Notes under the pieces: model-generated
Seen by the model: only the letters and a program-made list of their open reading frames with translations
Databases searched by the model: none
What the model was told of the DNA's origin: nothing
Translations under genes and position numbers: made by a program
NCBI RefSeq assembly: GCF_004010195.1
Contig: NC_057719.1
Coordinates: 26,190,227 to 26,210,226, forward strand
Direction: 5' to 3'
Origin: Chiloscyllium plagiosum
Lineage: Eukaryota
DNA length: 20,000 nt
Shown here: in pieces, positions 1,358 through 19,975 of the stretch
Layout: each line of letters starts with the position of its first letter
How positions within the stretch are numbered: the stretch's first letter is position 1

Positions 1358-1378
1358 ATTGGCCATGCTAGTGTGGCT

Positions 1379-1460
1379 GGTAGTGTGGCCGAGCGGTCTA
1401 AGGTGCTGGATTAAGGCTCCAGTCTCGACAGGGGCGTGGGTTCGAATCCCACCGCTGCCA
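1379..1460 (+). tRNA. tRNA-Leu, anticodon AAG (82 nt, long variable arm, no encoded CCA); probably a retroposed copy
   Basis: GGTAGTGTGGCCGAGCGGTCTAAGGTGCTGGATTAAGGCTCCAGTCTCGACAGGGGCGTGGGTTCGAATCCCACCGCTGCCA. Acceptor stem GGTAGTG/CGCTGCC, anticodon stem CTGGA/TCCAG, anticodon AAG at 1413-1415, T arm GTGGG-TTCGAAT-CCCAC. A and B boxes are intact. Confidence 0.95.
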
Positions 1461-1666
1461 TTTCTGCTGATCAACTTCAACGACGCAGCTTGTTAAAATG
1501 CTGTTTCAATCCCCGCTGTATTGATGTTTAAAACAGAAGCAAAATGCGTTTGCTTCGCGGGGAATTAACTGTGGTGTGGGAAAGTGCGGAAATTTCGAAA
1601 GTGTCTGTGCTGTCATGATCGTGTTCGCCTCCCGCGCGGAAAATCGCAAGCAGTTCTACTGTTATT

Positions 1667-1968
1667 GCGGCATGGTGGCACAGTGGTTAGCACTGCTGCC
1701 TCACAGCGCCAGAGACCCGGTTTCAATTCCCGCCTCAGGCGACTGACTGTGTGGAGTTTGCACGTTCTCCCCGTGTCTGCGTGGGTTTCCTCCCACAGTC
1801 CAAAGATGTGCAGGGTCAGGTGAATTGGCCATACTAAATTGCCCGTAGTGTTAGGTAAGGGGTAAATGTAGGGGTATGGGTGGGGTTCGCTTCGGCGGGT
1901 CGGTGTGGACTTGTTGGGCCGAAGGGCCTGTTTCCACACTGTAATCTAATCTAATCTAATCTAATCTA
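1667..1968 (+). mobile_element. HE1-type tRNA-derived SINE, near full length
   Basis: Head GCGGCATGGTGGCACAGTGGTTAGCACTGCTGCCTCACAGCGCCAGAGACCCGG, central TGTGTGGAGTTTGCAC core, LINE-like tail GGGCCGAAGGGCCTGTTTCCACACTG and (TAATC)n. Closely matches the copy at 4985-5299 apart from a 19-nt deletion and a variant 3' region. Confidence 0.93.
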
Positions 1969-1969
1969 A
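1942..1969 (+). repeat. (TAATC)n SINE tail microsatellite
   Basis: TAATCTAATCTAATCTAATCTAATCTAA read directly. Confidence 0.95.
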
Positions 1970-2093
1970 ATTGCTTGTAGTGTTAGGTGAAGGGGTAAAC
2001 ATAGGGGAATGGGTCTGGGTAGGTTGTGCTTCGGTGGGTCGGTGTGGACTTGTTGGGCTGAAGGGCCTGTTTCCACACTGTAAGTAATCTAAT

Positions 2094-3000: not shown

Positions 3001-3797
3001 TAGAAAAATACAGCACAGTACAGGCCCTTTGGCCCTCGATGTTGCGCCGATCCAAGCTCACCTAACCTATGCTAGCCCACTATCTTCCATATGCCTATCC
3101 AATGCCCGTTTAAATGTCCGTAAAGAAGGAGTGTCCACCACTGCTACCGGCAGGGCATTCCATGAACTCACGACTCGCTGAGTAAAGAATCTACCCCTAA
3201 CATCTGTCCTATACCTACCACCCCTTAATTTAAAGCTATGCCCCCTCGTAATAGCTGACTCCACACGTGGAAAAAGGTTCTCACGGTCAACCCTNNNNNN
3301 NNNNNNNNNNNNNNNNNNNNNNNNNNNNNNNNNNNNNNNNNNNNNNNNNNNNNNNNNNNNNNNNNNNNNNNNNNNNNNNNNNNNNNNNNNNNNNNNNNNN
3401 NNNNNNNNNNNNNNNNNNNNNNNNNNNNNNNNNNNNNNNNNNNNNNNNNNNNNNNNNNNNNNNNNNNNNNNNNNNNNNNNNNNNNNNNNNNNNNNNNNNN
3501 NNNNNNNNNNNNNNNNNNNNNNNNNNNNNNNNNNNNNNNNNNNNNNNNNNNNNNNNNNNNNNNNNNNNNNNNNNNNNNNNNNNNNNNNNNNNNNNNNNNN
3601 NNNNNNNNNNNNNNNNNNNNNNNNNNNNNNNNNNNNNNNNNNNNNNNNNNNNNNNNTTAGCTACATTGAACTCCATTTGCCACCTTTCTGCCCAGTTCTG
3701 CAGCTTATCTATATCCAGCTGTAACCTGACACATCCTTCCTCACTGTCAACAACTCCACCGACTTTCGTATCATCCGCAAACTTGCTCACCCAACCA
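3001..3797 (-). mobile_element. CR1/HER1 LINE 3' fragment (RT C-terminus and tail), interrupted by an assembly gap
   Basis: ORFs WVSKFADDTKVGGVVDSEEGC..WQMEFN and TRGHSFKLRGGRYRTDVRGRFFTQRVV. The 3001-3294 part is near-identical to about 15520-15815. Confidence 0.95.
3295..3656. other. Assembly gap (362 N)
   Basis: Run of N. Confidence 1.
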
Positions 3798-15505: not shown

Positions 15506-16250
15506 TATAGAACATAGAATATAGAAGAATACAGCGCAGCACAGGCCCTTTGGCCCTCGATGTTGCGCCGATCCAAGCCCACCTAACCTACACTAGCCCA
15601 CTATCCTCCATATGCCTATCCAATGCCCGCTTAAATGCCCATAAAGAGGGAGTGTCCGCCACTGCTACTGGCAGAGCATTCCATGAACTCACGACTCGCC
15701 GAGTAAAGAACCTACCCCTAACATCTGTCCTATACCTACCACCCCTTAATTTAAAGCTATGCCCCCTCGTAATAGCTGACTCCATACGTGGAAAAAGGTT
15801 CTCACGGTCAACCCTATCTAAACCCCTAATCATCTTATACACCTCTATCAAGTCACCCCTAAACCTTCTTTTCTCCAATGAAAACAACCCCAAGTGCCTC
15901 AGCCTTTCCTCATACGATCTTCCTACCATACCAGGCAACATCCTGGTAAACCTCCTCTGCACCCATTCCCGTGCCTTCACATCCTTCCTTTAGTATGGCG
16001 ACCAAAACTACACACAATACTCCAGATGCGGCCGCACCAGAGTCTTATACAACTGCAACATGATCTCAGGACTCCGGAACTCAATTCCTCTACCAATAAA
16101 AGCCAGTACGCCATATGCCTTCTTCACCGCACTATTTATCTGGGTGGCAACTTTCCAAGATCTGTGTACATGGACACCAAGATCCCTCTGCTCATCCACA
16201 CTACCCAGTATCCGACCATTAGCCCAATACCCCATTTTTTTGTTACTCTT
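15506..16250 (-). mobile_element. Young CR1/HER1 3' fragment
   Basis: One frame reads [66 protein letters not shown]..WNALP, with two in-frame stops. The tail is (TTCTATG/A)n on the minus strand and CpGs are retained. Confidence 0.96.
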
Positions 16251-18654: not shown

Positions 18655-19975
18655 TTCTACCATCCCCTTGCCCTAAACCTATGACCTCTCATTCTAGATT
18701 GTCCCACAAGGGCAAACAGCCTCTCTTTGTTAATTACTGTTAGCATCTTATACACCTCAAACAGATCTCCTCTCATGCTTCTAAACTTTTGTGAATACAG
18801 ACCTGCTCAATCTCTTCACAAAAGATAAGGCTTCATCTCTGGAATAAACCATTTCTGAACTGGTTGTAATGCAATTTATATTCTTCCTCAAGTAAAGGGA
18901 CCTGTAGCACTCCAGGTGCTGTCTCACTATTGCCTTGTACAAGTGCAACTTTTATGCTCTATTTTTTAAGCAATAAGCATTCTTATTTCATTGGCCATCC
19001 TTATTCCCAGCAGCACTGGCGTACTAGCTTTCTGTGACTCATGCGAAAGGATCCTTTTGCACTGAAGCATTTAGACATTTCTCTCCATTTGAATAATAAG
19101 TTGTCTTTTTATACTTCTGACCAAAATGGATATCCTCTCACTCATCCACATTAATCTCCATCTGCCAAATCCTGACCTTTTCACCAAACCGATCCATATC
19201 CATTTGTACATTTCTACTTTATCATTGTAAATGTCCTTCTCACCCATTTTAGTGTCATTTGCAAATTTGGCTATGGTGCACTCAATCCCTGCATCCAAAT
19301 CTTTAATATAGATTGTAAATAGTTCGAGCCTAAGGACTTAAACCTATGACAGTTCAATAGTTACATCTTGCCAAACAGAAAAAGACCCATTTGTGCCAAC
19401 TCTCTGCTTTCTGTTGGTCAGCTAATCTTCTATTTCATCTAATAAATTACCCATAAGCCCTCAGCTAATAAATAATCCTACCTAATGTTTTCTTACCTTG
19501 TGTATTAATCTTTGGTGGGGTGTCTTCTGGAAGTCCATCTATATACATCAATGTGGAGGTCTTGGTTAACATGATGTTGCAGAGTATCGCTTGTTACATC
19601 TTCGAAGAACTCGAGGAAATGCTAATTTGGAGAAATCTAGGAAATGATTTGCTCTTCATAAAACCAAGTAGACACTGATGGATTGTGTTTTAACTTTCCA
19701 AATGTCCCATTACTACTTCCTTCATAATGGATTTTACTAATTTCCCAATGACAGTCATTAAACTGACTGGTCCATAGTTTCCTATCGAAGAACTCGAGGA
19801 AATGCTAATTTGGAGAAATCTAGGAAATGATTTGCTCTTCATAAAACCAAGTAGACACTGATGGATTGTGTTTTAACTTTCCGAATGTCCCATTACTACT
19901 TCCTTCATAATGGATTTTACTAATTTCCCAATGACAGTCATTAAACTGACTGGTCCATAGTTTCCTACACTCTGT
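18655..19975 (-). mobile_element. Old CR1 ORF2 (RT) fragment, heavily decayed
   Basis: Minus-strand remnants NYGPVSLMTVIGKLVKSIMKE (NYRPVSL motif), EFFEDVT, and IYIKDLDAGIECTIAKFANDTK (FADD motif). Confidence 0.88.
19602..19967. repeat. Direct tandem duplication, 2 x 183 bp
   Basis: 19602-19784 and 19785-19967 are identical except A19700 versus G19883. Confidence 0.97.

Follow-up and report, generated by a model that had tools for sequence, protein, structure and literature searches.

How a tRNA gene came to stand at the head of a SINE, within a single block that splits an older repeat, is the question raised by a locus in the genome of the shark Chiloscyllium plagiosum. The window analysed here is a stretch of 20,000 nucleotides in which the block from position 1371 to 1968 (598 bp) interrupts an older SINE, as judged from the assembly by sequence comparison within the window. 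A preliminary description had proposed that a Pol III transcript started at a tRNA-Leu gene, ran into a SINE residing downstream, and was then copied into a new site as a possible nascent composite SINE.

Structure of the insert and its target site

The SINE carries three marks of a V-SINE, namely a tRNA-like head, a very high copy number (47,326 exact matches to the head in the genome), and a short tandem 3′ tail. Following the preliminary description, we provisionally call it an HE1-type SINE, with HER1 as its putative partner LINE. The HE1/HER1 pairing is tabulated in PMC3747384. A 34-nt 3′ segment of the SINE is common to other repeats of the window at 68–82% identity, some of which by eye lie behind LINE-like frames. 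The locus has the following features.

1358–1370, plus strand: target site and left remnant, 13 nt of an older, 5′-truncated HE1-type SINE, recognised from 13-mer matches
1371–1378, plus strand: pre-tRNA leader, 8 nt, probably beginning where Pol III initiated on the parent gene
1379–1460, plus strand: tRNA-Leu(AAG) copy lacking CCA, with one substitution relative to the array consensus
1461–1663, plus strand: trailer, 203 nt, from a unit of a tandem tRNA-Leu/Val array, at most 95% identical to array copies
1592–1595, plus strand: position of the array's usual run of four T residues (T4, at +132), here T3 as in array variants L073, L010 and L077
1601–1661, plus strand: decayed tRNA-Val-like relic inside the trailer, recognised by a shuffle test
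1664–1666, plus strand: three junction bases
1667–1941, plus strand: young, near-full-length HE1-type SINE with a private 19-nt deletion, from alignment to window copies
1942–1968, plus strand: (TAATC)n tail, from which reverse transcription was presumably primed, matching the target over CTA(A)
1969–2093, plus strand: right remnant of the older SINE, of a longer subtype, continuing the 13-mer

The 13-mer at 1358–1370 accounts for one of four matches in the window at no more than one mismatch, where 0.06 are expected by chance, and the remaining three all lie within SINE copies, immediately 5′ of AATTGC. From 1969 onward the sequence bears the diagnostics of a longer SINE subtype, whereas the inserted SINE is of a shorter one. 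The matches and the subtype mismatch across the block therefore indicate that an older, truncated SINE was split by 1371–1968. The preliminary description was right to treat the block as one unit, given that the 13-mer and its continuation at 1969 rejoin, and right that the insert begins 8 nt before the mature tRNA, lacks CCA, and ends in the (TAATC)n tail of the SINE. This tail forms a tandem repeat, (TAATC)5.6, that spans 1942–1969. The CTA reported at both junctions is present and represents either a 3-bp duplication or microhomology of the tail to the target; the phase of the tail is also compatible with CTAA as the shared bases.

That the block is a misassembly of repeat-rich reads is scarcely credible. 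There are N gaps elsewhere in the window and the junctions are known from the assembly alone, but the older SINE rejoins to the base, the 5′ end makes biological sense, and dozens of similar structures occur at unrelated sites. Sequencing runs of three organisms contain 0.33–0.62 of the sequence words, a fraction for which repeats alone suffice and which carries no evidence on the junctions or on age.

The tRNA-Leu(AAG) copy scores 53.4 bits against an Rfam cut-off of 29 and conforms to the cloverleaf, and the head of the insert thus holds an intact tRNA with a predicted internal Pol III promoter. No T4 is present anywhere in 1371–1968, which leaves the insert terminator-free up to its tail; the first one past 1371 lies at 2256, approximately 800 nt behind the tRNA. 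The last 6 nt of the 8-nt leader are identical to array leaders and the array upstream sequence is absent. With this loss and the lack of a nearby terminator, the tRNA copy does not have the surroundings expected of a functional tRNA-Leu gene.

Within the trailer, the relic at 1601–1661 resembles tRNA-Val with a shuffle p of at most 0.0065 for nine of ten array tRNA copies and 0.052 for the tenth. An Rfam search of the trailer, relic included, found no RNA family. The bases at 1664–1666 might belong to a SINE leader, might have been added without a template, or might be what is left of a terminator variant of the array (L135). Across fusions of this kind, the 2–3 bases 5′ of the SINE head probably represent the SINE RNA's own leader, because they also precede many stand-alone heads (by eye, among 100 of the 47,326 inspected for this). 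The inserted SINE itself can be aligned to two further full-length copies in the window, and it is 98% identical to the nearest copy sampled.

The source array and its dispersed fusions

The trailer had been considered unique, and a single source locus was one candidate for its origin. Neither view holds, as a genome search returned 460 candidates, the 40 of these that were scored are 86–100% identical to it, and the trailer belongs to a tandem array. In all 30 loci fetched, it stands directly behind a tRNA-Leu copy, and in 28 of them it runs on into common sequence unrelated to the SINE, with a T5 some 25 nt further along. The array is a tandem repeat with units of approximately 3–4 kb that carry tRNA-Leu and tRNA-Val genes, and most of it lies on short unplaced contigs. 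Homology of the window insert to the array stops at 1663. The 206 nt previously assigned to the trailer are correct as a length, made up of 203 nt of array sequence and the three junction bases, but not as trailer throughout.

Array units differ from one another. The array upstream match is present in 33 of 40 units, absent in six, and unscorable in one, and the T4 at +132 is found in 22 of 38. One variant, L135, carries a T4 at +205 and is the sole such variant among the units seen. Approximately 5–20 nt upstream of tRNA-Leu, loci L002–L030 exhibit a hypervariable GC-rich stretch between two conserved array-leader blocks, which varies far more than its neighbours. In the predicted fold of the array transcript, the +203 junction falls within a short hairpin, on its 3′ arm, and in the cut form it falls at the base of a 6-bp hairpin. 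The unit at L236 (G000:C89126) has an antisense SINE directly behind its tRNA with array sequence on both sides, and is a SINE insertion into an array unit at the DNA level, the single clear antisense case.

At least 235 matches to the trailer start exist in the genome, many of them decayed, and single units are also dispersed on several chromosomes (array examples L073–L085). All 20 matches on large scaffolds among the 100 of 235 listed were examined. They comprise three long fusions, one array unit seen earlier, and 16 newly fetched loci, which are six SINE fusions, three retrocopies with A-tailed partners, and seven array-type copies. There are thus nine dispersed fusions of a Leu trailer to a SINE, with trailer ends at +22 (L121), +58 (L120, with an A8 linker), +60 (L132), +63 (L130), +70 (L129), +139 (L119), ~+195 (L035), +203 (L025, on C19), and +203 (the window copy), the last three being the long ones. 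In all nine, the SINE starts at its head or at most 4 nt from it. L119 terminates on the +132 T run of the array, and L121 and L129 are 5′-truncated within the tRNA. A further locus that matched the junction pattern, L031, has neither tRNA nor trailer and was discarded as a chance match, and seven of ten matches from another junction-pattern search were set aside for lack of trailer in the matched text.

These fusions bear out the proposal that RNA rather than DNA was copied, since array upstream or downstream sequence is retained in none of the seven scored; L121 and L132 likewise lack such a match. Identity to array leaders ends 2–9 nt 5′ of the tRNA in 11 Leu retrocopies, which supports the earlier proposal of a single RNA-templated insertion, primed on the SINE tail and ending at the Pol III start. 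The suggested search for relatives through the trailer did recover other tRNA-Leu/SINE fusions with different flanks, but no common set of junctions and no single source emerged from it. Exact-pattern searches yielded no source locus with both parts joined, in an assembly where the array is fragmented, and exact-pattern searches of the genome yielded no daughter of the window copy.

The trailer of the window copy clusters with one array type and that of L025 with another. A clade of the two is rejected by the trailer tree (p-AU 0.024), as is a clade of the three long fusions (p-AU 0.004), in tests that are weakened by gene conversion within the array. On the SINE parts, a common origin of the window copy and L025 is not rejected (p-AU 0.21). 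The window SINE is closest to those of L119, L095, and one stand-alone copy, and the SINE of L025 is of the longer subtype. One master for the three long fusions was tried as a candidate and rejected on the trailers, but not on the SINE parts. The T4 at +132 is absent in all four retrocopies that extend past it, and the three long fusions have three different T4 lesions, each also present among array-type copies. This loss is weakly selective (0.42 to the fourth power, ~0.03).

A composite SINE family that descends from one master should have the same junction and private mutations in both parts, a combination these sequences do not appear to contain. With the trailer clade rejected, no daughter found, and the SINE subtypes differing, the idea of a nascent composite family is not sustained. 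The window copy, taken by itself, looks inert and does not constitute a new family.

Fusions of other pre-tRNAs and of U6

A scan of the genome for a T-loop motif 8–38 nt 5′ of the SINE head gave 79 hits, and the motif in front of an antisense SINE tail, used as a control, gave 51; all 130 were fetched. With introns allowed and a 95% score, ARAGORN recognises a tRNA in 23 of the 79 sense hits and in 2 of the 51 antisense hits (Fisher p 2e-4); at the default score the counts are 11 and 1 (Fisher p 0.028). BLAST against the tRNAs of this genome finds 14 sense and four antisense cases, three of those four being marginal. By eye, the remaining hits in both sets are mostly another SINE family. Several isotypes were captured, among them Leu, Lys, Cys, Arg, Pro, and Ser or Thr, and five hits are recognised as tRNAs solely when introns are allowed. 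Intron-bearing tRNA-Pro genes are uncommon in vertebrates. Loci L141, L146, L160, L185, and L093 hold tRNA-Pro-like copies with an intron of approximately 17–20 nt, captured unspliced.

Pairs of parent and retrocopy show where these copies start and stop. The Thr pair L251/L252 and the Lys pair L165/L246 have a leader of 7–8 nt in common, the copy stops at the T run of its parent, and no parent sequence follows behind the SINE. The pairs L094/L259 and L153/L264 display the same pattern on the 3′ side. A T4 lies directly 5′ of the SINE leader in six of 30 fusions (L095, L103, L108, L139, L176, and L183). Among the best Rfam tRNA loci fetched, four of 30 are fusions (L238, L251, L253, and L258, partly by eye). 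In L253, the tRNA-Cys/SINE fusion and its upstream flank are duplicated locally, approximately 400 bp apart.

For an empty-site test, 35 candidates were chosen by eye and five (L093, L141, L146, L152, and L162) were dropped because they have no recognisable SINE 3′ end. Of the remaining 30, seven have flanks that restore one repeat once the block is taken out; the case for L035 is weak, and L095, L120, and L170 each rest on one subject. The other 23 gave no collinear pair in the small local database, the window locus among them because its left remnant is just 13 nt long.

The U6 gene is involved as well. Of 48 U6 loci, the best 30 (L268–L297) include 12 that run directly into the SINE, 11 of them full length. 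In L272, a fragment of the SINE 5′ end, U6, and a complete SINE follow one another. At L275 (G000:C17:47236055–47236161, minus strand) a full U6 is joined directly to a tRNA-Lys-like copy that has a few leader bases, with no copy of this SINE adjacent. Four U6 copies (L273, L276, L281, and L287) share a short motif on their upstream side and are followed by the 3′ end of a single A-tailed repeat, which is also the partner in L118 and L124. These are U6 and pre-tRNA chimeras of a second, apparently site-preferring retroposon.

The class of fusions could in principle be built in two steps, in which a tail-less pre-tRNA retrocopy receives a SINE at its 3′ end later, or the SINE targets T-rich tRNA trailers. 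The 47,326 exact SINE heads make chance neighbours common, T-rich bases are frequent 5′ of these heads, and L118, L122, and L124 are pre-tRNA retrocopies without this SINE. The sense orientation is nonetheless strongly favoured, no target residue lies between the parts, one repeat rejoins exactly across the block, and those three retrocopies have A-tailed partners. A two-step origin is consequently very unlikely.

Origin of the junction and relation to known systems

The insert has an array-derived 5′ part and a SINE 3′ part in the same orientation, and it entered in a single event. It is probably a chimeric retrocopy that arose once, by a template jump in which the reverse transcriptase finished a SINE RNA at its 5′ end and went on, end to end, at the 3′ end of a nascent Pol III transcript. 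The proposed sequence of events, for which we infer the enzyme, the jump, and the transcript ends, is as follows. An array unit gave the leader, tRNA, and trailer, and the array flanks are absent from the insert. From a unit lacking the +132 T4, Pol III may have made an unprocessed pre-tRNA of ~293 nt. The enzyme of the partner LINE would then have nicked the older SINE and begun reverse transcription in the (TAATC)n tail of an ordinary SINE RNA, a step suggested by the junction and by known SINE/LINE biology. Upon reaching the 5′ end of the SINE RNA, it could have continued on the pre-tRNA, from the free 3′ end of that RNA back to its start site. The product was inserted as a single 598-bp block, and in this assembly such fusions have arisen independently dozens of times with other pre-tRNAs and U6.

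Complete, fixed SINE 5′ ends combined with variable 3′ ends of Pol III RNAs, in one orientation and at one target site, fit such a jump. Several observations count against it. A template jump and prior ligation of the RNAs yield identical DNA, the window copy and L025 share their junction base, and +203 does not coincide with a T4 in most array units. Furthermore, a simple jump to a terminator end predicts junctions at the common T5 near +228, and the search for such a fusion gave 0 matches. A T4 at +205, as in L135, would fit both +203 junctions if units of that type were the parents.

The read-through originally proposed would require a SINE in the trailer of an unassembled array unit and retrotransposition of a Pol III transcript that runs through both. 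The absence of any T4 from 1371–1968, the +203 junction common to two copies, and the SINE-part clade of these copies that is not rejected are all compatible with it; most array units lie on short unplaced contigs, and L236 proves that a SINE can insert into one. Among the matches examined, however, no copy in array context carries the junction, and the two +203 copies differ in trailer array type and in SINE subtype indels. Nine junction positions, from +22 to +203 and on different array haplotypes, would require many masters, and read-through fails for fusions with a T4 between the parts and for those with U6. We consequently regard it as an unlikely origin for the window insert and as unsupported for the class.

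Joining of the two RNAs by an RtcB-type ligase before retrotransposition, as has reportedly been proposed for U6/L1, would give the same DNA product. The A-rich linkers in L120 and L282 and the intron-bearing pre-tRNAs place the event among nuclear processing intermediates, as ligation would have it. Against this, the SINE is nearly always complete with a 2–3-nt leader as in stand-alone copies, and so presumably bears a 5′ triphosphate. Both a 5′ triphosphate and the 3′-OH of pre-tRNA U-tails are unsuited to RtcB, which makes ligation of these ends improbable.

Template-switch chimeras of U6 with a SINE or L2 are described in platypus (Mon-1) and Anolis (AnolisSINE2) (Doucet et al. 2015, PMC4476161). 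As in those chimeras, a Pol III small RNA lies 5′ of a SINE of a stringent LINE with a short target duplication or none, and the 12 of 30 best U6 loci show that U6/SINE fusions of this kind are present in the shark. The same paper finds switching mostly limited to U6/U6atac among the snRNAs studied, with platypus U6 parts mostly 5′-truncated. In the shark, by contrast, nascent pre-tRNA was captured together with its leader, its trailer, and sometimes an intron; it is usually copied to its 5′ end and brings its own internal promoter.

Template jumps of the R2 element onto tRNA-Lys, tRNA-Gly, and U12 have been described in vivo (Eickbush and Eickbush 2012, PMC3414825), where likewise a full-length element RNA is left at its 5′ end and a second small RNA is entered at its 3′ end. 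The R2 tRNA cases are two, in which the tRNA is mature and bears CCA and the LINE is autonomous and site-specific, whereas the shark has CCA-less precursors and a non-autonomous SINE at dozens of loci. L1 is known to make pre-tRNA and tail-less retropseudogenes (Schmitz et al. 2004, as cited in PMC4476161 and PMC2912911). These too are retroposed unprocessed tRNAs, but there the tRNA itself served for priming, no retroelement tail is present, and the duplications are of L1 type, while the shark copy was primed on a SINE tail.

Head addition is also described for SINEU (Kojima 2015, PMC4494074, which cites the addition of tRNA onto 7SL SINEs and of 5S onto tRNA SINEs), and a head switch for CmiSINE (PMC5499810). 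As in the shark, an RNA-gene copy was gained at the 5′ end of a SINE, and template switching is held responsible. Heads of that type were amplified from masters, whereas by Kojima's criterion (PMC4494074) the shark set is a sum of independent chimeras: a common junction with common private mutations was not found among the fusions. The literature searched contained no case of frequent nascent pre-tRNA capture by a SINE, or of any pre-tRNA/SINE fusion in sharks, although subscription papers and supplements may hold some.

The birth of SINE families has been attributed to the union of a small RNA gene with a LINE-recognised tail by template switching (PMC5499810, PMC4494074, and PMC4476161). Raw products with tRNA heads that have not yet been amplified are rarely shown, and this genome has dozens, of varied ages and isotypes and with identifiable parents. 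It thereby becomes possible to measure how often heads are captured and why few products turn into masters. The fusions spread copies of tRNA genes through the genome and resemble the event with which SINE families are proposed to begin. They also preserve where Pol III started on shark pre-tRNAs, where these RNAs ended, and which introns they held, reveal which array units were active in the germ line, and inflate annotated tRNA gene counts.

More speculatively, the shark SINE/LINE pair might offer a standing route for dispersing tRNA genes and replacing SINE heads, with some fusions being transcribed, retrotransposed again, or yielding mature tRNA. This unlikely reading leans on the fusions among the best tRNA loci, the predicted intact promoter, the lack of a terminator, and the LINE-recognised tail. 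If it were true, the recurrent +203 end would be the sign either of such a master or of a site, not described so far, at which a long array transcript is processed.

The remainder of the window consists mainly of LINE and SINE fragments, and by eye no gene is evident among frames of at least 90 aa. Two LINE 3′ ends on the minus strand, at 3001–3294 and 15522–15815, form a pair that is 94% identical. Finally, positions 19602–19967 hold an exact-looking tandem duplication of 183 bp (99%), which is possibly recent or an assembly artefact.
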